DNA of 64,000 bases from Mobula hypostoma (GCF_963921235.1 NC_086097.1:6262001-6326000), one strand, 5' to 3'; counted from the first letter of the stretch, positions 8,880 to 26,464 are shown. Numbers and translations are program-made. Notes: generated by a model from the letters alone, not told the origin.

Positions 8880-9476
8880 GGTCCTTCTGAGAGAGTAAGG
8901 TTTCAATTAGATATTACTTGGATCTGCCAAAGAATGAATGGTTAACACATGCAACTTTGACTGAATACAGTCAAATGAGTTTGTGTTAGCCCTTGAAATA
9001 TTCTATCTTGCAGTTAGAAGGTGCACTAAATGAATAGCATACTAATATACATTCTTGATTTATTAAGTTCAAAAATACTTCTACACTCAATCTCTGTTGT
9101 TCTAACGTACTATTGTTGTTCCATTGTGTCTCAATAGATAACAAATTTCCTGAATTCCATAAAGAATCCTTAATTATGCGTCTTGAAATTATCGTCTTAG
9201 AAATGGTACTTTTACAGTTCATTAGTCTTCATCCTAATTAATACATTTCTGTGAAGTTGAAGCACATTTATTTTTTATCCACTTTATCTCATTCACCCAG
9301 TTTTCTCTGGAACCTCCTCCCAATCCCACCATCTTGATTGGCTGACACAATATTCCTAAGTTGAACATCATAACCCAAAGCCAAAACAGTCTACCAGCAG
9401 AACACACTGCTTTTAAAGGAGTGCTAAAGTGAAATATCTACAGCATAACAGCAAAAATCTTAACCAGGGCATTACA
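8880..9476 (-). mobile_element. LTR-like sequence (probably solo LTR, left end unresolved)
   Basis: Minus strand begins TGTAATGCCCTGG immediately after the Gypsy pol C-terminus; non-coding. Confidence 0.4.
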
Positions 9477-9479
9477 CAG

Positions 9480-9665
9480 ACTTCAAGATTTAATCACTGT
9501 GGAGGATTTCTCACTTTTATCGGGAAACATCTTATCAGACAAACAGGATCCCATTGCTTGGCAGGTGGGATGTAGCTGTGCAATCTCAGCGTCGGGGGCC
9601 TTCTCTGTGGTTATTGTAGGAGTTGACTCCAGGACTGTAGGAAGTGGTTCTGACAGCTCTGCAAA
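9480..9665 (-). mobile_element. Gypsy (K02A2.6-like) pol C-terminal tail; 3' part of the RBM25-carrying element
   Basis: ELSEPLPTVLESTPTITTEKAPDAEI...VRNPPQ*LNL, matching the typical post-integrase tail (R-Y-P-x-R-x-R-x-P-P-x-R-L-x-L pattern). Confidence 0.65.
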
Positions 9666-9940
9666 CCGCTTTTCTCCTTTTCTATCTCGAGATCTACTTC
9701 AATCACTTCCTTTTTCTTTCACATATACCTTTTGCTCTTTTATATCCACATCTCTTCCTCTTTTTCTTCTTATACTTTGTGTATCTTGGTCTTGGGAAAG
9801 TCCATTTAGTTCACTGGAGTATTCTCTTATTCATCCTTTTATTGTTCCCTCCAAGATCTGATCTCTGCTCTTGGTTTCTTTATCCATAATACCATCTGAA
9901 AAACCCTCCGTTTTCTTACCTACATTAACTCCTTTCTTTT
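9665..9940 (-). pseudogene. RBM25: RBM25 processed pseudogene, segment 2
   Basis: KKKGVNVGKKTEGFSDGIMDKETKSRDQILEGTIKG*IREYSSELNGLSQDQD...SRSRDR vs RBM25 DEETKRRDQMIKGAIEVLIREYSSELNAPSQESD; in-frame stops and an internal deletion. Confidence 0.85.
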
Positions 9941-12900
9941 TTCTTCAGCAGTTTGATCGGGGCACGACTACGCAAGCGCATGGACGTCAGACAGCTAGAG
10001 CAGCGAGAAGAGTTTAAAAGGAGACGGTTATTTCTTCAGTGGTTTGATCGGGGCACGACAGCGCAAGCGAGTAGATGTCAGCCAGTGAGAACAACGAGAA
10101 GACTTTAAAAGGAAACAGCTTTATAGAGCGGGCGACAGAGTAGAGGGCTTTGGTTCAATGGGGCTTTGGCGATAATGGGTTGAGGTGAGGGAGGTTGCCT
10201 GTGTAGAATAGAGACAGGAAGTATGTATGTGAGGCCATTGTTCTGTGCTCGGTGTCAGATGTGGGAAGTCCTGGAGACCCCTGGCCTCCTGGACGACCAC
10301 ATCTGCGCCAGACGTGTCGAGCTGCAGCTCCTTAGGGACCGGGTGAGGGAACTGGAGATGCAGCTTGATGACCTTCGTCTGATCAGGAAAACTTCTGAGG
10401 TGATGGAGAGGCAAATAGTCACACCGGAGCTTTAGGAGACAGATAAGTGGGTAACAGTCAGGAGAGGGAAGGGCAAGAGTCAGATACTAGAGATACCCCA
10501 GTGGCTGTCTCCCTGAACAATAAGTACTCCTGCTTGAGTACTGTTGAGGGGACAGCCTACCTGGGGGAAGCAACAGTGGCCGCACTCCGGCACAGAGTCC
10601 GGCCCTGTGGCTTAGAGGGTAGGGAATGGAAGAGGATGGCAGCAGCAACAGGAGACTCTGTAGTTAGGGGGCCAGACAGGCGATTCTGTGGATGCAGTAA
10701 AGAAACATGGATGGTAGTTTGCCTCCCAGGTGCCAGAATCTGGGACGTTTTTGATCGTGTCCACGATATCCTGAAGTGGGAAGGAGAACAGCCAGAGGTA
10801 ATGGTACATATTGGTACCAATGACATATGTAGGAAAAGGGAGGAGGTTCTGAAAGGAGACTACAGGGAGATAGGAAGGAAGTTATGAAGCAGGACCACAA
10901 AGGCAGTAATCTCGAGATTACTGCCGGTGCCACATGACAGTGAGTATAGGAATAGAACGAGGTGGAAGGTAAATGCGTGGCTGAGGGATTGGAGCAGGGG
11001 GCAGGGATTCAGATTTCTGGATCATTGGGACCTCTTTTGGGGCAGGTGTAACCTGTACATAAAGGTTGGGTAGCACTTGAATCCCGGGGGGACCAATATC
11101 CTATTTGAGGTTTGCTAAGGCTATTGGGGAGAGTTTAAACTAGAATTGCTGGAGAGTGGGTTCCGAACTGACAAGACGGAGGAAGAGGTGGTTGGCTCAC
11201 AAATAGAGAAAGCTTGGAGACAGTGCGAGAGGAAGAATAGGCAGGTGATAGAGAAGGGATGCGCTCAGACCGATGGTTTGAGATGTGTCTATTTTAATGC
11301 AAGGAGTATTATAAACAAAGCAAAGAATGAACTTAGAGCGTGGATCAGCACTTGGAGCTATGATGTGGTGGCCATTACAGAGACTTGGATGGTGCAGGGG
11401 CAGGAATGGTTACTTCAAGTGCCAGGTTTTAGATGTTTCAGAAAGGACAGGGAGAGAGGCAAAAGAGGTGGGGGCATGGCACTATTGATCAGAGATAGTG
11501 TCACGACTGCAGAAAAGGAGGAAGTCATGGAGGGATTGTTTATGGAGTGGGTGGAAGTTAGGAGCAGGAAGGGGTCAATAACTCTACTGGGTATTTTTTA
11601 CAGACCACCCAGTAGTAACAGGTACATCGAGGAGCAGATAGGCAGAAGATTCTGGAAAGGTGTAATAATAACAGGGTTGTTGTGGTGGGAGATTTTAATT
11701 TCCCAAATATCGATTGGCATGTCCATAGAGCGAGGGGTTTAGATGGGATGGAGTGTGTTCATGAAGGTTTCCTGACACAATATTAGATAAGCCTACAAGA
11801 GGAGAGGCTGTACTTGATCCAGTATTGGGAAATGAACCTGATCAGGTGACAGGTCTCTTTGTGGGAGAGCATTTTGGAGATAGTGATCACAATTCTATCT
11901 CCTTTACCATAGCATTGGAGAGGGATAGGAACAGACAAGTTAGGAAAGTGTTTACTTGGAGTAAGGGGAAACATGAGGCTATCAGGCAGGAACTTGGAAG
12001 CATAAATTGGGAACAGATGTTCTCAGGGAAATGTACGGAAGAAATGTGGCAAATGTTCAGGGGATATTTGCGAGGAGTTCTGCATAGGTACGTTCCAATG
12101 AGACAAGGAAAGGATGGTAGGGTACAGGAACCTTGGTGTACAAAAGTTGTTATAAATCTAGTCAAGAAGAGGAGCTTATGAAAGGTTCAAAACACTATGT
12201 AATGGTAGAGATCCAGAAGATTATAAGGCTAGCAGAAGCAGCAAGGAGCTTAAGAATGAAATTAGGAGAGTCAGAAGGGGCCATGAGAAGGCCTTAGCTG
12301 ATAGGATTAAGGAAAACCCCAAAGCATTCTACAAGTAAGTGAGGAGCAAGTGGATAAGACATGAGAGAATAGGACCAATCAAGTGTGACAATGGAAAAGT
12401 GTATGGAACCAGAGGAGGAGAGGTTCTTAATGAATACTTTGCTTCAGTATTCACTACGGAAAAGGATCTGGGTGATTGTAGGGATAACTTACAACAGACT
12501 GAAGAACTTGAACATGTAGGTGTTAAGGAACAGGATGTGCTGGAGCTTTTGGAAAGCATCAAGTTTGATAAGTCACCAGGATCAGATGAGATGTACCCCA
12601 GGCTACTTGGAGTACTGTGCTGAGTTCTGGTCGCCTGACTACAGGAAGGATGTGGAAACTATAGAGGAGATTTACAAGGATGTTGCCTGGATTGGGGAGC
12701 ATGCCTTAGGTTCCACATAGGTTGAGCAAACTCGGCATTTTCTCCTTGGAGCAGCAGAGGATGAGAGATGACCTGATATAGGTGTATAAGATAATGAGGG
12801 GCATTGATCGTGTAGGTAGTCAGATGTTTTTCCTAGCAAGTGAGGAAAAGGTTTTAAGGTGCTTGGAAGTAGGTACAGAGGAGATGCCAGGGGTAAGTTT

Positions 12901-13125
12901 TTTACGCAGAAAGTGGTGAGTGTGTGGAATGGGCTGCTGGTGACGGTGGTGGAGGAGGATACAATAGGGTCTTTTAAGAGACTCCTGGATAGGTACCTGA
13001 AGTTAGAAAAATAGGGGCTGTGGGTAACCCTCGGTAACTTCTAAGGCAAGGACAAGTTCAGCACAGCTTTGTGGGCTGAAGGACCTCTATTGTGCTGTAA
13101 GTTTTCTATGTTTCTATGTTTCTAT
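9941..13125 (+). mobile_element. Near full-length CR1 LINE with internal RT deletion, inserted into the RBM25 retrocopy
   Basis: 5' tandem monomers, ORF1 (CARCQMW zinc finger, GDSVVRG esterase), APE (YFNARSI...AITETW), deletion near 12605, RT C-terminus, (TTTCTATG)n tail at about 13104-13125. Confidence 0.9.
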
Positions 13126-13478
13126 TGATCTAGCTGGACTTTAGTCTTAGCATCTACTTTTAAAAGTAGTGTTTTGTCTCCCACTTGAAATTCATGTAAT
13201 AACCTTAATGGACGCGGAGTAGATTCTGGTTCTTTGTACTCATGAAAGATGAATGCTTTCAACATCATCGAAACCCCTTGAACTCACATCCAGCTTAAAA
13301 CCAAGCCACATTTCTCAACTGTCTGATTAACATATCAGAAGCTTTCTCAGGTACGTGGCCTACAAACACTGTTGTAGTTGGACCACTGCTCTTGGCACTT
13401 TCATGATCACTCTGAGCAGCATCGTCCTTCCTTGGTCCAATGCGCTTTCCAGCCAGAGGCACAGATGTTGGTATCAAT
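13125..13478 (-). pseudogene. RBM25: RBM25 processed pseudogene, segment 1 (RRM domain)
   Basis: LIPTSVPLAGKRIGPRKD...GPTTTVFVGHVPEKASDMLIRQL, frameshift, KCGLVLSWM*VQG...HEYKEPESTPRPLRLLHEFQVGDKTLLLKVDAKTKVQLDQ*; matches the RBM25 RRM, no introns. Confidence 0.92.
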
Positions 13479-13519
13479 GTCAATTTGTCCTCCGTTGGGC
13501 AACAATTCATGGAGTTCGG

Positions 13520-13680
13520 CATGGAAATAGTTGTGACATCACTCAGTACATTGTTAAATTTGCTTTCAATTGTCTTCATTGCAGTAGATAGTTCACGTAA
13601 ATCGTGAATGGATCTCAATCAAGTTGTAGATATCCCAGCCAATCACACCCCGACAATGCTGGTCCTCTTGTTTTTACCAG
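13520..13680 (-). mobile_element. Gypsy (K02A2.6-like) protease end / pre-RT linker fused to RBM25
   Basis: VKTRGPALSGCDWLGYLQLD*..SIHDL..ESKFNNVLSDVT, i.e. the GPALLGRDWL protease flap motif; continues at 21531-21545 (LCVV) beyond the nested Gypsy. Confidence 0.7.
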
Positions 13681-13744
13681 TGTAGTCTAATGTAATTGGT
13701 GGAAGTGTACAGAATTCACAACCAGCAACATTGGGTTGGGGTTC

Positions 13745-13976
13745 TGATGCACCATCCATAACTCCAAAAGACTGGAAGTAGAATAAATACTGAAAGGCTT
13801 TTATTCGCAATAAAATGTGACCTCCACCATGCTGAGTGTCTGCCCCTGGACTGAGGGAGGAGCAGTGGCCAAATCGCCTTTATTCAGGGGTCTGTGGGTG
13901 GAGCCACAGGGCAGTCAGCAGAGGCGCGTGTCCAGACAGGTAACCCAGTTACAACATATAGATATGGTTTACCACA
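13745..13976 (-). mobile_element. Solo LTR
   Basis: Minus strand TGTGG...GCATCA with AATAAA; 5-bp TSD GGTTC (13740-13744, 13977-13981). Confidence 0.85.
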
Positions 13977-14879
13977 GGTTCACTTTCAGAGGCTGGTTTG
14001 ATGTGATTACGTTATTAAGTAAAGCTTTTTAGTGTGCTTTTGTGCTGATATCTTGGATTTCAATAAAGTGTGTTACAGGTTTCATTAAACATAAAATGCC
14101 TCGCTTTATTTTATTTGTGAAAACCTATATTGGTGATCCCGATACTTTAGGATAATTCCAGAGTTTTTGAACATGTCAGCCAACGCGGTTGCTTTGAAAC
14201 TGTTGGATCTTTGGGAGCAAAATGCCATCAATGGGTTTGTACAAGCTGAGGCCCAAGTTGCTTTGCCAGGAATCTCTACCGACAACACCAAATATTTCTA
14301 TGTAGTAGTGTCATTTGGCAACTCCATGGCTACAAGAGTGGTGAATCTACTAGAACACCCATCTGAACACGATAAATACTGATCACTGAAAACTCACTTT
14401 TACAGAATTTTGTCCTATCGGAGGCTGAGCATGCCAACAGTTACACTTCTTGCCTGGCCTTGGCGATGCTAATCCATTGGAGCTAGCGGACCACTTGCTG
14501 TCTCTTCTGGAAATCACCATCCTTATTTTATTTTTAAAGAACTCTACATGCAGTATATGCCTGATCAGGTGCTCATAGCCCTGACTAGTGTACCTGTGAA
14601 GGACTATAGGGATCTTGCTAAAATAGCTGATAGTCAACACTCAGCTGGTCATTGGTACATTATTCCTCCTTTCTCTACCCCAATAAGCCCAGTCAGCAAG
14701 ACCCCAACATAAAGATACTTATTGCTGTGAAGCAGACGATGCCGTGCCTGTGTTTTTACCACACTTGTTTTGGCATGACACTAAGAAGTGCCGACCACCT
14801 TGCAGTTTCAACAGTACCAGCACATCAGGACATCAGATGTCTGTAAAGACAGTAGGTTCCAGCTGCCAGGGTCATATAT

Positions 14880-15359
14880 CTCTGGCTATCCATCTCATAG
14901 GATGATGATGGTTCCTTCAGTCAGTTAGTGGGGTGGTAGGGGTACCCCACTCCTCAGAAAGGAACAGCGTGTGCATGAGTGGATTTTAGGCGACTAGGGT
15001 GTTGCACAGGTCCAGACCCACCCTCTCGACGTCCCCTCCCGGATCCAGCGGCATGGTGGGGTCCAAGATGGCTGGGGGAAGTTCTGGTGCAGTGAATGGC
15101 CAGACCAAACTTCGATGCAAGGGATGCCCTTTCCGCACTTCACGGCACGTGTTTGCTAGATGGCCATTGACCCTACGATAGGGTTCATCCGCCCTTTGAC
15201 AGGTCTTGTTTTTCATCCTGCAGGGTGTCTAGCCACCCTCCTCACCAGGCAAGCCTGGTGGGGGAGCTGGTTTAGTCACCGACCACCAGACCATGCGACA
15301 GGTAGTACTGGGTTCCATGGTACCAGTAGCACTCAGACCAGTGACCTGACCAGAAAGGT
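14880..15359 (-). mobile_element. Non-autonomous non-LTR (RTE/Vingi-like) SINE-type insert
   Basis: 10-bp TSD GGTCATATAT (14870-14879, 15360-15369); GC-rich, non-coding; family call tentative. Confidence 0.6.
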
Positions 15360-15769
15360 GGTCATATATAGTTCATTATGGACAGCCTTTCAGAGCCATG
15401 CCTCTTGTGTGACACTGGTGTTCCAGTAAGCGTGCTGCCAGCATTTCTTATTGATGAGAAGGCAAAGTGTGATAAAACCTTACTGGAGGCTGGCCACCAC
15501 AGCAAGTTCCAGACCTAAGGAACAGGACCCTCTGCTTCAGTGGGTGACGTTACACATTAGACTTTGTCCTGGCTGAAGTGGCTACTCTTCTGCTCGGTGT
15601 AGATTTCCTGTGTGCCTAAGGGCTGTCAGTCGATCTTAAGAACTGCCAGCTTGCGGATCTCAAGGACTTTGGGTCATTGCAGAAAAATAGGTCTCTTTCA
15701 GAAGAATGAGAGGGGATCTTATAGAAACACACAAAATTTTGAAAGGGATAGATAAGATAGAAGTAAGAA

Positions 15770-17848
15770 TGCGATGCGAAACTTTTCTTCCGCCGTCTCC
15801 GTCTCCGAGCCTACTTCTTCGGCAAGGACTCTTCCACCCCCACCGATGACCCCTTCTCTCGTCTTCAACCCTCCTCTTCTTCATGGACACCCCGCTCTGG
15901 TCTTCTGCCTGCTCTGGATCTCTTTATTGCCAACTGCCGACGGGACATCAACCGTCTCGACTTCACCGCACCTTGTCCCCATTCCAACCTCACTCCTTCG
16001 GAACGCTCTGCTCTCCACTCCCTCCGCACTAACCCTAACATTATTATTAAACCCGCTGATAAAGGGGGTGCTGTGGTAGTCTGGCATACTGACCTCTACC
16101 TTGCCGAGGCACAGCGACAACTCGCGGATACCTCCTCTTATTTACCCCTCGATCGTGACCCCACTAAGGAGCACCAGGCCATTGTCTCCCACACTATCAA
16201 CGACTTTATCCGCTCAGGGGATCTCCCATCCACTGCTACCAACCTTATAGTTCCCACACCCCGCACTTCCCGTTTCTACCTCCTACCCAAGATCCACAAA
16301 CCTGCCTGTCCTGGCCGACCTATTGTCTCAGCTTGCTCCTGCCCCACCGAACTCGTTTCTGCATACCTCGACACTGTTTTATCACCCCTTGTTCAATCCC
16401 TTCCGACCTATGTTCGTGACACTTCTCACGCTCTTAAACTTTTCGATGATTTTAAGTTCCCTGGCCCCCACCACTTTATTTTCACCATGGATGTCCAGTC
16501 CTTATATACTTCCATCCCCCATCAGGAAGGTCTCAAAGCTCTACGCTTCTTTTTGGATTCCAGACCTAATCAGTTCCCCTCTACCACCACTCTGCTCCGT
16601 CTAGCGGAATTAGTCCTTACTCTTAATAATTTCTCCTTTTGCTCCTCCCATTTCCTCCAAACTAAAGGTGTAGCTATGGGCACCCGTATGGGTCCTAGCT
16701 ATGCCTGCCTTTTTGTTGGGTTTGTGGAACAATCTATGTTCCGTGCCTATTCTGGTATCTGTCCCCCACTTTTCCTTCGCTACATCGACGACTGCATTGG
16801 CGCTGCTTCCTGCACGCATGCAGAACTCGTTGACTTTATTAACTTTGCCTCCAACTTTCACCCTGCCCTCAAGTTTACCTGGTCCATTTCCGACACCTCC
16901 CTCCCCTTTCTAGATCTTTCTGTCTCTGTCTCTGGAGACAGCTTATCCACTGATGTCTACTATAAGCCTACTGACTCTCACAGCTATCTGGACTATTCCT
17001 CTTCTCACCCTGTCTCTTGCAAAAACGCCATCCCCTTCTCGCAATTCCTCCGTCTCCGCCGCATCTGCTCTCAGGATGAGGCTTTTCATTCTAGGACGAG
17101 GGAGATGTCTTCCTTTTTTAAAGAAAGGGGCTTCCCTTCCTCCACTATCAACTCTGCTCTTAAACGCATCTCCCCCATTTCACGTACATCTGCTCTCACT
17201 CCATCCTCCCACCACCCCACTAGGAATAAGGTTCCCCTGGTCCTCACCTACCACCCCACCAGCCTCCGGGTCCAACATATTATTCTCCGTAACTTCCGCC
17301 ACCTCCAACGGGATCCCACCACTAAGCACATCTTTCCCTCCCCCACTCTCTCTGCATTCCGCAGGGATCGCTCCCTACACAACTCCCTTGTCCATTCGTC
17401 CCCCCCATCCCTCCCCACTGATCTCCCTCCTGGCACTTATCCGTGTAAGCGGAACAAGTGCTACACATGCCCTTACACTTCCTCCCTTACCACCATTCAG
17501 AGCCCCAAACAGTCCTTCCAGGTGAGGCATCACTTCACCTGTGAGTCGACTGGGGTGATATACTGCGTCCGGTGCTCCCGATGTGGCCTTTTATATATTG
17601 GTGAGATCCGACGCAGACTGGGAGACCGCTTTGCTGAACATCTACGCTCTGTCCGCCAGAGAAAGCAGGATCTCCCAGTGGCCACACATTTTAATTCCAC
17701 ATCCCATTCCCATTCTGACATGTCTATCCACGGCCTCCTCTACTGTAAAGATAAAGCCACACTCAGGTTGGAGGAACAACACCTTATATTCTGTCTGGGT
17801 AGCCTCCAACCTGATGGCATGAACATTGACTTCTCTAACTTCCGCTAG
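15770..17848 (+). CDS. Penelope-type reverse transcriptase + GIY-YIG endonuclease (5'-truncated; frame open upstream of the ORF-track start at 16073)
   Basis: KPADKGG, LPKIHK...GRPIVS, MDVQSLYT, GVAMG, RYIDD, FLD, CKRNKCYTC zinc motif, VIY..C..C..LYIGE..RRL..RF.EH; no stops. Confidence 0.93.
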   Translation, partial: CDAKLFFRRLRLRAYFFGKDSSTPTDDPFSRLQPSSSSWTPRSGLLPALDLFIANCRRDINRLDFTAPCPHSNLTPSERSALHSLRTNPNIIIKPADKGGAVVVWHTDLYLAEAQRQLADTSSYLPLDRDPTKEHQAIVSHTINDFIRSGDLPSTATNLIVPTPRTSRFYLLPKIHKPACPGRPIVSACSCPTELVSAYLDTVLSPLVQSLPTYVRDTSHALKLFDDFKFPGPHHFIFTMDVQSLYTSIPHQEGLKALRFFLDSRPNQFPSTTTLLRLAELVLTLNNFSFCSSHFLQTKGVAMGTRMGPSYACLFVGFVEQSMFRAYSGICPPLFLRYIDDCIGAASCTHAELVDFINFASNFHPALKFTWSISDTSLPFLDLSVSVSGDSLSTDVYYKPTDSHSYLDYSSSHPVSCKNAIPFSQFLRLRRICSQDEAFHSRTREMSSFFKERGFPSSTINSALKRISPISRTSALTPSSHHPTRNKVPLVLTYHPTSLRVQHIILRNFRHLQRDPTTKHIFPSPTLSAFRRDRSLHNSLVHSSPPSLPTDLPPGTYPCKRNKCYTCPYTSSLTTIQSPKQSFQVRHHFTCESTGVIYCVRCSRCGLLYIGEIRRRLGDRFAEHLRSVRQRKQDLPVATHFNSTSHSHSDMSIHGLLYCKDKATLRLEEQHLIFCLGSLQPDGMNIDFSNFR

Positions 17849-18140
17849 GCCCCACCTCCCCCTTGTACCCCATCTGTTACTCATTTTTATGCACACATTC
17901 TTTCTCTCACTCTCCTTTTTCTCCCTCTGTCCCTCTGAATATACCTCTTGCCCATCCTCTGGGTCACCCCCCCCCCGTCTTTCTTCCCGGACCTCCTGTC
18001 CCATGATCCTCTCGTATCCCCTTTTGCCTATCACCTGTCCAGCTCTCGGCTCTATCCCTCCCCCTCCTGTCTTCTCCTATCATTTTGCATCTCCCCCTCC
18101 CCCTCCAACTTTCAAATCCCTTACTCACTCTTCCTTCAGT

Positions 18141-18178
18141 TAGCCCTGACGAAGGGTCTCGGCCTGAAACGTCGACTG
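18141..18178 (+). ncRNA. Minimal type I hammerhead ribozyme in the Penelope pLTR
   Basis: CTGACGA 18146-18152, stem II AGG/CCT, GAAA 18166-18169, palindromic ACGT stem III, GTC triplet 18171-18173; one stem I mismatch (AGCC/GACT). Confidence 0.8.
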
Positions 18179-21100
18179 CGCCTCTTCCTATAGATGCTGC
18201 TTGGCCTGCTGCGTTCACCAGCAACTTTGATGTGTGTTGATAGAAGTAAGAAAGTTGTTTCTTATGTGAGACTAGAACTAGGGGACATTGTCTCAAGATT
18301 CAGGGGAGAAGATTTAGGACAGAGATGAGGAGAAACTGTTTTTCCCAGAGAGTGGTGAATCTGTGGAATTCTCTTCCCAGGGAAGCAGTTGAGGCTCCTT
18401 CACCAAATTTATTTAAGATACAGTTGGATAAATTTTTACATAGTAAGGGAATTAAGGGTTATGGGGAAAAGGCAGATAGATGGAGCTGAGTTTACGGACA
18501 GATCAGCCATGATCTTATTAAATGGTGGGGCAGGTTCGATGGGTCAGATGGCCGACTCCTGCTCCTATTTCTTACATTTCTTATTATGTTTCTTATTACC
18601 CTACTCCCCAGTAAGTTCCCCACAATGAATCTGTCAAGCGCATGCACCACCGGATGTGAGTTTACTCGACTGCTGGGTATGTTCCTAAACCTCACCAAGC
18701 CTACATTCTCCATTGCAATCACAAAACATGGGGTAGAGCACCATATTTCTACAACTGTCTCACCAGTCCATGTCTGCATGCATTGACCGAACCCATTAAA
18801 ACTGACAACCATGAAAGCTAAATATGCCAAAATAGAAAGACGTGGTACTATACACTGGTCAATGGCTCCTGGGATTTGCCCCTTCATATGGTCCCTAAGT
18901 CCAATGGCGTTTGCTGCCCTTGTGGCTTAACGAGACCACCTACACCCAATCATTAGTCAGTCCCACATATCCAGCACTGTTCGGCACATTTATCCAGAAA
19001 GTTATTTTTCTCCAATGTCGATCTAATTAGGAGCTAGCTTCAGGTGCCTGTGTGCTTGGAGCACATTTCCAAAATGGTTGTGATAACCCTGTTTGGCCTC
19101 TTTCAGTTTTTGCACATGCCGTTTGGGCTGAAAAATGCAGCACAGACTTTCCAACGGCTAATGGACTCTGTAATAAAAGACTTCGAGTTTCTTTCTGTTT
19201 ACATGGATGACATACTTGTCGCCAGTGCATCCAAATCTGAACCCATATCACAGCTCCGTGCACATTTCGAGTGCTTAAGCCAACATGGGTTGATTATTAT
19301 CCCTGCTAAATGCCAGTTTGGGTTGTCAACCATTGACTTTCTCAGCCATTGCATCTCTGCAGATGGTGTGAAAACTCTCCCGTCAGAAGTAATCGCAATT
19401 ATGGATTTCCCACTGCCCCACAACTACTAGAATAAGACAGGAGTTTTTAGGCTTCATTCTGTGTGCTGCTGTGCTTTCACTTCTCCTGTATAGTGCACTT
19501 GAAGGCAATGCCCCTAATCACGTGCTTGACTGGTCAGCGGACATGACCAGAGCATTTGATGGCACTAAACAAGCTCTTTCCATCATAACCCTACTGGTAT
19601 ACCCACTCCCCAATGCATCTATAGCCATTTCAGACTACGCTGTGAGTGCTGTGCACAACCAGCTGGTCAGAGGCGGGTGGCAGCCATTCACCTTCTTCAG
19701 CAACAGCTCCAAAACCCCAAAAGAAAGTACAGCACATTTGACAGTGAGCTTCTTGTTCTCGATCTGGCTGTCCGCCATTTTCATTTTCTTCCAGAGAGTT
19801 GCAATTTCACAACGTTCATAGACCACAAGCCCCTCATTCACGCAATGGTCAAACTATCAGACCTTTGGTCAGCGAGGCAGCACCGCCAAATGGTCTACGT
19901 TTTAGAGTTCAAACTGGTATATAACACACTAAGGGAAAAATAATTCCGTGGCTGACTGCTGTCATGGCCAACATGGCCCATACACATAGGGGCTGACAAT
20001 GAGAGCATGGCAGCTGACCAAGTTATGGTTCCCAAGGTCCAGGCTTGTTGAACAGAAGTCACAGGTCTGCGGTTAGATGACATTAAGTTCAGGGAAGCTA
20101 GGGTTTCCCTCCTGTGCGATGTCTCAATCATTTGACCTCGCCCTCGCAAACTGGAGGCAGACTGTTTTAGACTCTGTATATGGTCTGTCGCATCCAGGCC
20201 AGAAGGTCTCACAGAAACTGGCTGCACAGAATTACGTGTGGGACGGCCTCAGAAAGGATGTGTGTGATTGGACTGTAGCCTGTGTGGAGAGCCAGTGGGC
20301 AAAAATTAATCCCCATCCGGGCGCCATTGGCACCTTTTGAGGTCCTGAGCAATAGTTTGACCATGTCACTGAGGAACTTGATGACCCTCTTCCCCTCACT
20401 GTGGTTTCTCGCACCTCCTTACCATGGTGGCCTGAACGACCAGCTGGCCGGAGGTCATCGACGACGACCGCAGACGTGGCTCAGGCGTACTTCTGCACCT
20501 GGGTTGTTTGGTTTGGAACCCATCTGATATTTCCTCAGACCATAGTCCCCAGTTCATATCGGACTTAATGGGCTGCTATGGCCTGGAACCTCAGCATTAG
20601 GCTACGTTACACCACGCATATCACTCACAGTCCAGTGGCCTGTGTGAGAAGTTTCACTGCTCCTTAAAGGCTGCTCTGAGAGCTTCCCTGATGGATGACT
20701 GTTGGCATGACTGCTTCCTGTGTGTCCTGCTGGGGCTCAGTACAGATCCAAATGAAGATCTACAGTCGTCTGCAGCTGAATTGGTACTGTATACGGGCAG
20801 CTATTCTGAGTACCAGGTGATTTTACTCTTGATGCTACGACTGCCTGGTTGGTCTCTCAACAGCATTTCGCCCTCTTCAGTAAACCTCATTTGCACCCTC
20901 CTTTGCACCTATTCCTGTCTCCCACCATGGCATACAGCACTGTTCGGTTTCTGCTGATCATTCAGCCTCATGACATTTGTTTTTGTCCACCATGAGGCAC
21001 ACCAACATTGCCTTACACTCCTTACGGTGTCTTGTTCCACATTTCAGAACTGAAAGAGAACACTTTTATGATAGATATGAGGGATAAACCTGAATGTGTT

Positions 21101-21549
21101 TCAGTAGATCGCCTTAAACCAGCCCACCAAGACTTGACGGATTCCACTACCATGCCCCTACCATCACGACACGAACATGAGTGCGTCAACACACCTCTGG
21201 ACGAGTCAGAGCACCTGCAGTCCCCCCACCCATGGAACATAGAACTCGAGCCAGGCAGCTCATCCAAGCTCCAGACAGGCTCGCTAATCTGGTTTTAGTG
21301 AATTCTGGGTGGGTCTGTGTAGGGTCATGTTAATGGTAGAAATGCACATAACTTACAACCACAAACTGAGTTTGGTTTCACTTTAAGAGACTGGTTTGAT
21401 GTGATGACGTAATTATGGAAAGGACTTCTACCGTGCTTTGTGTTCAGTTTTTTTGGTGTTCAATAAAAGAATTGCTAGAGATTTTTCTAATTATAAAAGG
21501 CCTCCGTCATTTTACTGGTGAAAATCTACACCACACACAAAGCAGTGTA

Positions 21550-22285
21550 GGAGTGGGAACTTGAGGCTTTGGCGAGGAGGCACAGGAAAGTAGCAAGCAA
21601 GGCCTTTGTAGTGGTTGAATAAAAAGTCACTAAATTACAGCCATTTAAGTGAAGGGATGATGCAGGATCAGGTGATGTGCTGTGCAAAGAGGTCCTGAAA
21701 AGAGAATTTAGAGAGCTGGGCAGAAAGAGGAGTAGGGCCTCCAGGGTAGTAATTTCTGGATTGCTGTCTGTGCCATGCGCCAGTCAGGGTAGAAACAGGA
21801 TGATTTGGAAGATAAATGCGTGGATGAGAAGCTGGTGCAGGGGTCAGGGCTTCAGGTTCTTGGATTATTGGGATCTCTTCTGTAGAAGGTATGACCTGTA
21901 CAAAGGTGATGGGTTGCTGCTGAACCCAAGCAGGACCAATATTCTTAGGGGAAGGTTTGTTAGAGCTGTTGGGGAGAGCTTAAACTAATTTGGCAGGGGG
22001 GTGGGAACTGGAGTGAAGGGTCACAGGATAGGACGGATGGTAAAAAAAAACGAAGATAACATGCAGTTGGACTGTCAGGAAGAGCAGGCAGATGATAGGA
22101 CAAAATTACAGCCAGCAAGGTGAGTGCATTAGGATGCAGAATCAAAAAGTGTGGCAAAGTACTCCAACTGTTATACCTCACTGCGCAGAGTATAAGAGGA
22201 ATGATCTTGTTGCACTATTACAGGTTGTTCAGTATGATATTGTAATCATCACTGAATCATGGCTGAACGATGGTGGTAGTTGGGA
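21550..22285 (+). mobile_element. CR1 ORF1/endonuclease fragment (mostly an inverted duplicate of 23518-24108)
   Basis: KEVLKREFRELGRKRSRASRVVISGLL...; near-identical to the reverse complement of the adjacent copy. Confidence 0.8.
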
Positions 22286-22289
22286 GAAG

Positions 22290-25200
22290 GATCATTACTA
22301 ATGTCTCCACAATCTCTACTGCTACCTCTTTCAAAACCCTAGGGTGCAGTTCGTCTGGTCCAGACGATTTATGAACCGTTAGGTCTTTCAGCTTTTTGAG
22401 TACCTTCTCTCTTGTAATAGTAACTGCACCCATTTCACTTCCTTCACACACTACAACATCAGGCATACTGCTAGTGTCTTTTGCTAGTGACTGATGCAAA
22501 ATGCTCATTCAGTTCTTCTGCTATCTCCTTGTCCCCCATTATTATTTCTCTGGACTCATTTTCTAGCGGTCCTATATCTACTTCCATCTCTCTTTTATTT
22601 TTCACACAGTTGAAAAAGTTTTTCTATTCATTTTGATATAGTTTGCTACCTTGCTTTCATATTTCATCTTTTCCCTCCTAACAATTCTTGTAGTTGCTCT
22701 CTGTAGGATTTTAAAAGCTTCAATCCTCTATCTTCCTGCTAGTTTTTGATTTGTTGTATGCCCTCTTTTTGGCTTTCACTTTAGCTTTGCCTTCCCTTGT
22801 CAGCCACGTTTCTACTATTTTGCTATGTTTTTGGAATACATCAATTCTGCACTTCCTCATTTTTGCCAGAAACTCAAGCCATTTCTGCTCAGCTGTCATC
22901 CTTGCCAGCATCTCTTTCCAAGTTACTTTGACCAACACCTCTCTCATACCACTATAATTTCCTTTACTCCACTGAAATTCTGCTACATCAGAGTTTACTT
23001 GCTTTCTATCAAGTTTCAAGCTGAACTCAATCATGTTATGATCACAGCCTCCTTAGGTTTCTTTTACCTTAAGCTCCCTAATCACCTCCGGTTCATTACA
23101 TAACACCCAATCCAGTATAGCTTGTTGGCTCAATGACAAGCAACTCTAAAAAGCCATCTCGGAGGCATTCAACAAGCTCACTCTCTTGAGATCCATTACC
23201 AACCTGATTTTCCCAATTGAGCTGCATGTTAAAATCTCCCATGACTATCATAATATGGTCCTTTTGACTTGCCTTTTCTATTTCCTGTTGCAATCTGTGG
23301 TACACATCCCAGCTACTGTTAGGAGGTCTGTGTATAACTGCCATCAGGGTCCTTTTACCCTCACAGCTTATTAACTCAACCCACAAGGATTCAACATCTT
23401 CCAATCCTATGTTACATCTTTCTACAGATTTGATGCCATTCTTTACTGGTAGAGCGACACCACCCCCTCTGCCTAATTTCCTATCCCTTTATACAATGTG
23501 TAACCTTGGATATTCATTTCCCAACTACCACCATCGTTCAGCCATGATTCAGTGATGATTACAATATCATACTGAACAACCTATAAGAGTGCAACAAGAT
23601 CATTCCTCTTATGCTCCGTCCAGTGAGATATAACAGTTGGAGTACTTTGCCACCCTTTTTGATTCTGCATCCTAATGCATTCACCTTGCTGTCTGAAATT
23701 TTGTCCTGTCATCTGTCTGCCCTTCCTGCATGCCATCTTTGTTTTTTTTAACCACCCGTCCTATCCTGTGACCCTTCACGTCAGTTCCCACCCCCCTGTC
23801 AAATCAGTTTAAGCCCTCCCCAACAGCTCTAACAAACCTGCCCACCTAAGAATATTGGTCCCGCTTGGGTTCAGCAGCAACCCATCACCTTTGTACAGGT
23901 CATACCTTCCACAGAAGAGATCCCAATAATCCAAGAACCTGAAGCCCTGACCCCTGCACCAGCTTCGCAGCCATGCATTTATCTTCCAAATCATCCTGTT
24001 TCTACCCTGACTGGCGCATGGCACAGACAGCAATCCAGAAATTACTACCCTGGAGGCCCTACACCTCTTTCTGCCCAGCTCTCTAAATTCTCTTTTCAGG
24101 ACCTCTTTGCTTTTCCTTCTTATGTCATTGGTACCAAATGGTACCAAGACATTTGTCTGCTCTCCCTCCTCCTCCAAAATGCTCTGGATGTAATCTGAGA
24201 TATCCCTGACCACGGCACCTAGGAGGCAACATACCATTCAGGTGTCCTGTTCATGTCCATAGAATCTCCTGTCTGTTCCCCAGACTATTGAGTCCTTATC
24301 ACTACCACTCCCCTTTCTTCCTCTGTCCCATCTGCACCACGGACCTATGTGCAGTGCCAGTTACCTGCTCTCCGTGACATTCCCCAGGGAGGTCATCCCC
24401 AACAATAGTATCCAAAACGGCATACTTATTATTCAGGAGTTGTGGGCATGTGGCCAAGTGGTTAAGGCATTGGACTAGCGACCTGAAGGTCGTGAGTTTG
24501 AGCCCCAGCCGAGGCAAAGTGTTGTGTCCTTGAGGAAGGCACTTAACCACACATTGCTCTGCCACAACACTGGTGCCAAGCTGTATGGGTCCTAATGCCC
24601 TTCCCTTGGACAACATTGGTGTCGTGGAGAGGGGAGACTTGCAGCATGGGCAACTGCTGGTCTTCCATACAACCTTTCCCAGGCCTACGCCCTGGAGAGT
24701 GAAAACTTTCCAGGTGCAGATCCATGGTCTCGCAAGACTAAAGGATGCCTTTATTTATTATTCAGCAGAATGGCCACAGGATTGCTCTGTGCTAACAGCC
24801 TCTTCATATTTCCATTTCTCCTGACAGTCACCCAGCTACCTGCCTCCTGCAATTTAGTGGTGACTATTTTCCTGTAACTCTGATCGATATCTCCTCACTC
24901 TACCGTACAAGACAGAGCTCATCCAGCTGCTGCTCCAGATTCCTAATGCAGTCTTCAAGAAGCTGCAGCCAGATGTAGTTCCCTGGGAGACTCTGGGTCC
25001 CCCAGGACTCCAACATCTGGCATGAAGAACATTCAACAGCCATTTGCGACACTAGGTACTGTCAGGGAACAAAAGGGAAACTTAACAGAAGCTTACCCAG
25101 AGTCAATGCCTCTTTCAAGCCGAAGTCTCCTTTGAAGCAAATCCTGACACTCCGACTCTCACCACTGGCCCACTCCCTACAATGACCCTCCCATTTGTCC

Positions 25201-25400
25201 CTTCTGTACTTTTAAATATCCACAAAGTTCTGCTTTTAAACAAGCGTCACTGATCTACGAGAAACTTTGCCGTTGTTGTCAGCTCCTGCCACTGATTGCG
25301 TCTCTGGAACGAGACTGGATGCCCATGAAACTCCTTTTAAACAAGCATTAGCAACCTGTGAGAAACCTTATCATTGTGGTCTGCTCCTGCCACTGATTGG
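22290..25400 (-). mobile_element. CR1 LINE 5' two-thirds (5' UTR, ORF1, APE, linker), decayed
   Basis: ORF-track hits 23809-24237 (esterase), 23096-23404 (APE) and 22257-22508 (KSSGPDELHPRVLKE). Confidence 0.85.
24437..24754 (+). mobile_element. tRNA-derived SINE
   Basis: A box TGGCCAAGTGG, B-box-like GAGTTTGAGCCC; 11-bp TSD TTATTATTCAG (24426-24436, 24755-24765). Confidence 0.85.
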
Positions 25401-25404
25401 GCCG

Positions 25405-25855
25405 CTGGACTTTTTATCTTTATCTCTTCCCTGTGCAGTCTATTTATTCTTCTCTGCCTGAAATGTTCTTTGTATGTGACCTATTTTGTTGCATTTTCTG
25501 CAAGTTTCATCCTTAAATCTGTATCGGTTATTTAATTTGCTTCAAAATACTGTTCCAATTGCTCAGCTTACACGTCAATAACCCATTGTGTAATCAAACT
25601 CATCAATCTTTCTGAAGTAACAAGACATTTCTGCTTTTTTTTAATGATTGTTATCACACTTTATGAATCCGCGAATTCTTCCTTTTCTTACTGTTTTTTT
25701 AAAACTTGATCCTGTCTTCCCTTCCGAAGAACATGTGCTTTTTGTAATTCGACTATTCCTCACTGCATTTTATTGTATTTCAAATGTCTTGCTGCATTTT
25801 AACAGGTCGGTCTTCGTGTTGGGTTCTTTTTAAAAATACCTTGTTGCCAGTATTA
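25405..25855 (-). mobile_element. Gypsy (K02A2.6-like) PBS, leader and internally deleted gag; 5' part of the RBM25-carrying element
   Basis: PBS-like TGGCAACAAGG (25849-25839); gag start MSCYFRKIDEFD...EQLEQYFEAN; zinc knuckle CRKCNKIGHIQR...DKDKKS. Confidence 0.7.
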
Positions 25856-26464
25856 TTATATATACAATGAGTTAGGGAAATAGAACCATAGAACCTTAGA
25901 ACACTACAACACAGAAAAATGGACAGACATTGTTTGGTACTGAGAACTTTCTACCCTGAAGAAGATTCTTAACCCCTAATATCTATTTCATATCCCTCCA
26001 CAGATGCTGTCAGACCTATTCAGTTTGTCTGCAGATCATTGGTAGCTTTCTGTTATGTATGATATGTACTCAGGGCTATTAGCATTGTCAATGACCCCTC
26101 CCACACAACAATTTCTTTGACTCCCTACCATCAGGCAGGAGGTACTGTAGCATTCAGACAATGACCATTGGGATGGGAAACACCAACTTCCCCCAAGCTA
26201 TGAGACTACTGAATTCTATGGTATCGCTCAGGTCTCATCACAAATGAAGTGCCATTAGTGTTATACTGTTTACTTTTTAAATTGTGTCATAAATCCTTTG
26301 GTTTCCCCCAATATAATATACACTGGTTAGTAAGATAATTATTCATTGTAAATTGTCCTTTGATTAGACTAGGGTTAAATCAGTAGGCTGTTGTGTGCTG
26401 TGGCTCAAAATACCGGAAGAGCGTGTTCCACTCTGTATCTCTCAATCAATATATAATGCACTTC

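Follow-up and report, generated by a model that had tools for sequence, protein, structure and literature searches.

The results of this analysis indicate that a 64,000-nt stretch of the Mobula hypostoma genome (GCF_963921235.1 NC_086097.1:6262001-6326000; hereafter the window, with positions counted from its first letter) carries a dead copy of a high-copy, non-autonomous, Ty3/Gypsy-type family of retrotransposons with long terminal repeats (LTRs), in which an internal part of pol gave way to a fragment of the host splicing factor gene RBM25. We consider it highly probable (ca. 0.9) that the family was made by LTR-mediated retroposition and then underwent mass amplification. The chimeric unit is read on the minus strand, where the segments 25856-25405, 21550-21531, 13684-13120 and 9941-9477 are confirmed to be pieces of one element, collinear and interrupted three times, by two long interspersed nuclear elements (LINEs) and one LTR element. 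All reading frames of the window copy are broken, and it is a dead, incomplete relic.

When the genome (3.48 Gb, 200 contigs) was searched, relatives of the window copy were found at thousands of candidate places. Window 13130-13680 gave 3300 candidates, this and the following counts being first-look figures and not verified copy numbers, and all 40 that were scored matched nearly all 551 nt at 77-79%. Window 9440-9940 gave 3096 candidates (40 of 40 scored matched at 72-77%), and a 45-aa stretch of the RNA-binding RRM domain gave 2396 (150 of 150 scored matched at 80-95% amino-acid identity). The pieces 9477-9941 and 13120-13679, which are split by a LINE in the window, adjoin with a gap of 24 nt or less in 36 of 38 other loci (blastn to the window), and the zinc-knuckle piece 25405-25528 sits 300-450 nt upstream in at least 20 of the 38. 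Among 44 other copies, RBM25 was present in every one and Gag-protease in 41, always on the same strand as RBM25 and upstream of it (41/41). Since the same junctions recur at other loci, the chimera itself transposed. An earlier reading made from the window alone (the sequence-only reading) had proposed that the minus-strand pieces become collinear once the insertions are removed, that reverse transcriptase (RT), RNase H and integrase are absent, and that the unit might belong to an amplified non-autonomous family; the uninterrupted copies, the gene content described below and the candidate counts agree with it on all three points, and the interpretation as an LTR-mediated retrocopy is supported.

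The family is a non-autonomous derivative of a Ty3/Gypsy-type LTR retrotransposon, not an autonomous member. A unit measures ca. 2.5-3.0 kb and begins and ends with an LTR; the ca. 2.0-2.5 kb between the LTRs hold, in sequence, the primer site, a zinc-knuckle Gag, the protease, a fragment of RBM25 that has no introns and contains the RRM, and the last ca. 65 codons of pol. LTR pairs of ca. 170-250 bp with 74-81% identity were found in six copies fetched with 10-kb context; they begin with TG and finish with CA, a TGG-led, primer-binding-like site stands one base past the 5′ LTR, and a purine tract precedes the 3′ LTR. Target duplications of 5 bp (one mismatch at most) were present at three of the four full copies inspected, the fourth being ambiguous. 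Searched against the library, the Gag-protease frame of copy L003 matched 1347 proteins at E ≤ 1e-3; the top matches were to P0216, a Gypsy polyprotein model of 652 aa with an internal deletion, from a characiform fish, and to P0229, a full gag-pol of 1324 aa. Residues 1-416 of P0216, which comprise all of Gag, the knuckles, the protease and the start of the linker, were collinear in the copies with RBM25 next to them (tblastn), and the LDTGSS protease motif is intact in copy L015; P0216 itself gave sub-threshold Pfam protease matches only. The Gag-protease match extends to residue 405 or further in 27 of 41 copies, and the RBM25 match begins at residue 84 or earlier of the gar protein in 33 of 41. 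None of the 44 other copies contained the P0229 core from RT to integrase, and one (L008) contained an integrase C-terminal domain. The chimera is non-autonomous because RT, RNase H and the integrase core are absent in all 44. Both LTRs, the primer site, leader, gag, protease, polypurine tract and pol stop region were shown directly to have been retained.

The missing segment is present in a partner Gypsy family. A partner copy on contig C2 comprises L066 (gag knuckle, protease, linker and RT) and L063 (RNase H and integrase) and continues into the C-terminal part of integrase, and L062 carries the integrase core, the C-terminal domain and the tail, followed by sequence 70-79% identical to the 3′ part of the chimera and running into the LTR; the pol order of protease, RT, RNase H and integrase was thus found in this family (L066, L063, L062). 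The chimera and the partner are 70-80% identical in DNA up to both junctions, and the flanks belong, as had been proposed, to one Gypsy family. The partner homology halts at the end of the protease-RT linker and returns ca. 65 codons ahead of the pol stop, so that the host part reads as a replacement of an internal pol segment and not as an insertion into a continuous element. The RT-start segment gave 4770 first-look candidates, and 39 of the 40 non-self matches scored were full length at 78-82%; the helper is therefore about as abundant and as old as the chimera.

At the 5′ junction, the chimera and the partner are 75-80% alike up to ...CTGGATGATGCCA, with the next dozen bases partly alike; the likeness likewise holds up to ...GATGATGCCA, with ...GCCA shared and the following bases again partly alike. 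The switch lies at ca. 13534/13533 in the window, beyond which the partner continues into RT and the chimera into RBM25. At the 3′ junction, similarity returns in a purine run just ahead of GCTGTCAGAACCAC (window ca. 9685-9665). With the partial likeness at the 5′ side and the purine run at the 3′ side, both junctions appear to lie in short similar stretches. A different junction was seen in copy L008 (927-1298, minus strand), where RBM25 halts at ca. residue 269 and is followed directly by the partner integrase C-terminal domain and the usual basic pol terminus. When this junction was used as a probe, all 39 non-self matches scored covered the integrase part only, at 82-87%, and the RBM25 part was in none; L008 is therefore a one-off recombinant whose integrase part comes from an abundant separate family; it probably arose secondarily, by recombination of chimera and helper RNA.

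The captured part was next compared with RBM25 proteins. Of 517 candidates, 103 were matched at E ≤ 1e-3 by a 165-aa frame of copy L041, with Amia calva RBM25 (4e-43) as the top match; RBM25 of many fishes was matched at 1e-43 to 1e-26, and nearly all the named matches seen were to RBM25 or RRM proteins. The RBM25 identity of the captured part is firm. Among solved structures, weak matches to the U2AF65 RRM only were obtained (E of 0.02 or worse). The captured part runs from ca. residue 72 of gar RBM25 to at least 325, ca. 0.8-1.0 kb of coding sequence with the RRM included, and to ca. 400-412 in the longest copies; it is cut inside the coding sequence at both ends and is without residues 1 to ca. 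70 and all that follows ca. 325-412, the 3′ untranslated region (UTR) included. When full-length gar RBM25 was compared with the genome, all 54 scored matches were contiguous, from residues 60-148 to 245-413 (the captured part covering ca. 60-77 to ca. 270-413), and were retrocopies only; with the C-terminal PWI part, the host gene was located on the minus strand of contig C1, at ca. 99.79-99.81 Mb, and its 3′ half proved to be split into six or more coding exons.

The joint between the N-terminal segment and the RRM was informative as to the donor message. Shark RBM25 models P0104, P0366 and P0367 have an extra segment of 15-19 residues between the proline-rich N-terminus and the RRM, which gar RBM25 is without. 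P0367, an RBM25 model of 268 aa derived from the assembly of a public run, reads ...MAPATTV, then SMLYTMNRCPTEGKQ(CFTQ), then VLLPTTVP. In Heptranchias perlo, the RBM25-like gene models X1 and X2 (P0104 and P0366) are identical but for the four residues CFTQ at this joint, as would be expected of an intron with two alternative acceptor sites. The extra segment looks like an alternative exon of cartilaginous-fish RBM25 that was kept in the retrotransposon family. CFTQ is absent from the family sequence, ...ATTVSM..MN..PTE.KQ|VLVPTSVP, which has the joint of X2; the captured message was therefore spliced and of the X2 isoform. In the window, the segment SM..MN..PTE..K matches P0366 and P0367 and puts the start of RBM25 at ca. 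13533, ca. 55 nt further upstream than the 13478 given by the sequence-only reading.

Stop-free frames of 153-281 aa, running from protease through the linker into the RRM, were found in six independent copies (L032, L012, L017, L020, L007 and L011). These frames are open across the 5′ junction and show protease fused in frame to RBM25; the master element therefore encoded a Gag-protease-RBM25 fusion. In a near-length search with the junction-spanning frame, none of the 120 listed protein matches covered the protease part. Copy-to-copy identity of the junction segment has a median of 82.8% (171 pairs), and the LTR pairs (74-81%) and the copies (ca. 83%) together point to one old burst, which may be placed on the order of 1e8 years ago if neutral change is assumed to proceed at ca. 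1e-9 per site and year. Mismatch by codon position 1, 2 and 3 in the RBM25 part was 0.230, 0.214 and 0.237 (37 copies, leaving out L053-L058, which had been picked by protein similarity, and duplicate fetches), and gag and protease had rates of 0.26-0.33 with a similar, slight third-position excess. These values fit neutral decay of the copies after one burst, with no sign of selective retention after insertion; the test is silent on the master copy. Copies L011 and L013 (contig C91, 12.60 and 14.73 Mb) are 99.2% identical, and all other pairs are 80-86%; this pair looks like a recent segmental duplication and not a recent transposition.

The following course of events is proposed from the anatomy of the copies and the known mechanism. 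RT copying a Gypsy RNA inside a virus-like particle would have switched template twice at short similar stretches, first onto a co-packaged, spliced RBM25 mRNA and then back. The switches would have replaced the segment from the RT start to ca. 65 codons before the pol end with RBM25 coding sequence. The resulting chimera was presumably copied in trans by the enzymes of the intact partner, as the shared LTRs and tail, the equal age and the similar abundance suggest, and would have risen to thousands of copies in one old burst. The copies then decayed neutrally; the window copy was hit by two LINEs and an LTR element, and its LTRs and portions of gag and protease disappeared.

The rival that survives best is an origin at the DNA level, in which ectopic recombination or repair between a Gypsy element and an existing RBM25 retrocopy was followed by transcription and amplification. 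It would give the same end product, and DNA end-joining also uses microhomology. However, it requires an extra, unseen intermediate, an intronless RBM25 copy in or beside a Gypsy element, and a precise internal pol swap that leaves the cis-acting ends intact is the signature of template switching in the available part of the report on chimeric retrocopies by Tan et al. (2016; PMC5131818); we regard this origin as very improbable. Still less credit can be given to a LINE-made processed pseudogene of RBM25 within a Gypsy element that lost pol by later deletions. LINEs have been active here, two being nested in the window copy, and the A/G-rich 3′ junction could be mistaken for a degraded poly(A) tail, but in the longest copies this stretch aligns to the Arg/Glu-rich region of RBM25. 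The RBM25 part, moreover, ends within coding sequence on both sides and runs straight into the pol tail with no 3′ UTR between them; the 5′ fusion is in frame, both breakpoints appear to lie in short similarity with the partner and are common to all copies examined, and around the RBM25 part no poly(A) tail was seen, as the sequence-only reading had argued, and no direct repeat or target duplication. That unrelated Gypsy fragments flank an RBM25 pseudogene by chance at one locus only, as a pile of nested repeats such as this region might suggest, is refuted by the same order and junctions in all 41 copies with both parts and by the collinearity across the LINE site at 36 of 38 loci.

Several observations weigh against LTR-mediated retroposition with mass amplification, or soften it. 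The candidate counts are a first look, as stated above. Neither an LTR nor a target duplication was detectable for the window copy, so that its own transposition is read from its relatives. Pfam gave no convincing family in any of 13 decayed fragments, the sole match being eIF3g at E 0.009, under its cut-off. The frame across the 3′ junction is the same in only two of eight copies. The Lys/Glu/Arg-rich stretch differs in length by ca. 250 nt between copies, and the RBM25 match accordingly ends at ca. 270-325 in most copies and at ca. 400-412 in the longest. The host exons were read for the 3′ half of the gene, and introns inside the captured residues were not directly seen; with the 45-aa RRM stretch, a query swamped by family copies, no match to the host locus was among the 150 scored. 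All partner copies seen are decayed, and the microsimilarity was read from the chimera against the partner together with protein models, which makes the lengths of the similar stretches approximate.

Why a defective element should have spread so far invites two suggestions, on which the capture may have been more than a passenger event; we put both forward tentatively and hold them to be rather unlikely. The in-frame Gag-protease-RRM fusion might have given the chimera a packaging edge or let it compete for helper enzymes, which, if true, would explain how a defective element matched the copy number of its partner. Alternatively, through thousands of nearly identical sequences derived from RBM25, the burst might have exposed RBM25 to small-RNA silencing; element-directed small RNAs hitting the essential RBM25 gene would then amount to a host-parasite conflict. 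A conflict of this kind is proposed for gene-capturing elements in maize in the available part of another report (10.1101/777037).

Within the window, the chimeric element retains the following pieces, all on the minus strand. The 5′ end (25523-25856; blastn) comprises the last LTR bases, a primer-binding-like site (TGGCAAC...), the leader and ca. the first 35 gag codons, the gag start having been located through residue 1 of P0216 in other copies (tblastn). It matches positions 243-579 of the element in copy L041 at 74% (blastn), and L006, L011, L016 and L038 extend to 25856. A repeated GGTTCTAT motif, resembling a LINE 3′ tail, lies at 25877-25905 (minus strand), ca. 20 nt upstream of the expected 5′ LTR joint, and may mark another LINE that displaced or destroyed this LTR on insertion. 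The next piece (25405-25524; tblastn and blastn) is a decayed part of gag with the second CCHC zinc knuckle; it matches other copies at 78-85% (blastn), and residues 204-248 of P0216 matched the window at 25541-25407 (E 1.6e-6, tblastn), which shows the zinc-knuckle piece to be real. At 21531-21550, just upstream of the nested LTR element, a protease-coding remnant was assigned by eye against other copies, a weak assignment as 20 nt are too short for statistics. The segment 13534-13684 (blastn) belongs to the Gypsy backbone and holds the C-terminal end of the protease, followed by the protease-RT linker as far as the 5′ junction.

The RBM25 part follows in two pieces. The first (13120-13533; tblastn) contains the alternative N-terminal segment and then residues 77-201 of gar RBM25 with the RRM; gar RBM25 (P0027) residues 78-201 matched at 13477-13125 (E 8e-37, tblastn), and 13400-13125 translates as a decayed RRM with stops and frameshifts present in the piece. 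The RBM25 reading picks up again at 9940, beyond the nested LINE, and the second piece (9685-9941; tblastn) runs from the post-RRM region into the Lys/Glu/Arg-rich region up to the 3′ junction (±20 nt), with residues 225-272 of P0027 matching at 9887-9744 (E 2.6e-9, tblastn). The last piece (9477-9684) holds the last ca. 65 codons of Gypsy pol, the integrase C-terminal tail, in decayed form. This stretch in L008 aligns to the pol C-terminus (P0229 residues 1187-1324, E 4e-10; P0216 residues 538-652, E 2e-20), and its DNA is also present in the integrase-bearing L062; the pol tail proposed for the 3′ side is thereby corroborated.

The family similarity stops at ca. 9477-9454, and no 3′ LTR follows. 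No LTR of the chimera was found in the 64-kb window by blastn with whole elements, by local alignment against shuffled controls or by word-7 blastn. A non-LTR element with termini at 25856 and 9477 was considered and rejected, as the other copies continue into shared LTRs. The window copy is without ca. 510 bp of gag, at 25524/25523, and ca. 335 bp of protease including the active site, between 25405 and 21550; family positions ca. 1204-1540 (protease) had no match anywhere in the window (blastn). The sequence-only reading did not notice that the unit is incomplete; its limits for the three insertions were right to within a few bases and are corrected here to 9942-13119, 13685-21530 and 21551-25404.

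The insertion at 9942-13119 (plus strand; Pfam), which splits the RBM25 part, is a CR1/L2-like LINE with a repeated 8-nt motif at its 3′ end and an Exo_endo_phos match at 11119-11742 (Pfam); in other copies, the counterparts of 9941 and 13120 are 4-24 nt apart. Its 3′ end (13027-13134) is extremely abundant in the contigs of all four organisms compared below, with a summed word depth of up to ca. 1.6 million against thousands for the RBM25 family, and may also be the tail of a short interspersed nuclear element (SINE) that uses this LINE. The insertion at 13685-21530 (plus strand; Pfam and ends) is an LTR-type retrotransposon of a different family, with RVT_1 (19038-19430, 4e-17), RT_RNaseH_2 and Integrase_H2C2 matches (Pfam), ends TGTAG...CTACA and a 4-nt duplication, CTGG/GTGG, at its flanks; it had no DNA match to the chimeric family (blastn). 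Inside it lies a 693-aa open frame (ca. 15767-17848, plus strand) with a weak RVT_1 match and, by eye, a GIY-YIG-like C-terminus, from which a further nested, Penelope-like element is suggested. Window ca. 17240-18245 has copies of 93-98% identity in the flanks of unrelated loci (L036, 97.6% over 1010 nt; L038, 97.3%; L027, 93.9%), which makes the Penelope-like family much younger than the RBM25 chimera; a Penelope-like element also interrupts partner copy L062. The third insertion (21551-25404, minus strand; Pfam and self-alignment) is a CR1/L2-like LINE with Exo_endo_phos at 23096-23488 and a GDSL-like open reading frame 1 (ORF1) at 23809-24237, both on the minus strand (Pfam). It contains inverted arms of its own ORF1-endonuclease region (21684-22292 against 23512-24110; three arm pairs, 91-98% complementary), and this inverted duplication could be a 5′-inversion-like rearrangement at insertion or an assembly fold-back.

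Related sequence was also found outside this species. Public runs of four organisms hold contigs that are at least 80% alike over all 30 bins of window 13000-13800, and one contig of organism B (308 nt) covers 13434-13675 with eight differing letters and spans the 5′ junction. Among the 32 contig pieces listed for organisms D and E, out of more than 50,000, none bridged the 5′ junction, the pieces lying on the RBM25 part only. No RNA run was among the listed public runs that hold the sequence.

The family offers a very clean vertebrate case of a retrotransposon taking up a spliced host message, with breakpoints, helper and product in one genome. If the estimate of ca. 3000 copies of ca. 2.9 kb is right, it would make up ca. 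0.2-0.3% of a 3.5-Gb genome, and thousands of false 'RBM25-like' matches are to be expected from annotation pipelines. Any silencing aimed at the family would have had sequence identity to an essential splicing factor, and the family is a natural experiment on whether a Gag-fused host RNA-binding domain helps a defective element to spread. A search of the literature found no paper linking RBM25 to LTR elements or Gypsy.

Bs1 of maize, which Elrouby and Bureau are said to have described, is reportedly an LTR retrotransposon carrying host gene fragments. As far as the partial description of that element goes, the RBM25 chimera resembles it in being non-autonomous, in its transduced host coding sequence and in further rounds of retroposition; Bs1 is said to occur in plants, at low copy number, and to have drawn on several donor genes, whereas the RBM25 chimera has one donor, resides in a vertebrate and reached a very high copy number. 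Large retrotransposon derivatives (LARD) and terminal-repeat retrotransposons in miniature (TRIM) are non-autonomous LTR retrotransposons, usually with non-coding or unidentifiable internal DNA. Like them, the RBM25 chimera retains the LTR, primer site and polypurine tract, has neither RT nor integrase and would be mobilised in trans by a related autonomous family; unlike them, it has preserved gag and protease and contains a host domain that can be identified.

Acutely transforming retroviruses are replication-defective and helper-dependent and have Gag-onc fusions, in which pol (and env) is replaced by spliced host cDNA. The RBM25 chimera differs from them as a germline retrotransposon without env that was massively amplified in the germline, and its captured gene is a fragment of an RNA-binding splicing factor, unlike the growth regulators of these viruses. 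It is like them in its in-frame Gag-host fusion, its presumed use of helper RT and integrase, and a proposed capture by template switching on co-packaged RNA of the kind set out in the accessible text of PMC5131818.

In that text (Tan et al. 2016), LTR-mediated retroposition yields chimeric retrocopies through microsimilarity-dependent template switching, and a chimera can be transcribed and retroposed again. As far as these chimeras are described there, the RBM25 chimera agrees with them in that part of a host mRNA, free of introns, stands in place of an internal segment of the reading frames with both LTRs retained, in the apparent short similarity at the fusion points, and in the lack of a poly(A) tail or target duplication around the retrocopy. 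It differs from the chimeras described there in the number of its candidate places, which runs to thousands and is close to that of its helper, and in keeping a complete Gag-protease frame that is fused in frame to the host part. The mechanism, LTR-mediated retroposition, is a known one, and its product resembles a helper-dependent Gag-fusion retrovirus and also a LARD-type element; what is unusual is the scale of the amplification, the fusion of a Gag-protease frame to a host RNA-binding domain, and that helper, breakpoints and donor isoform can all be read.

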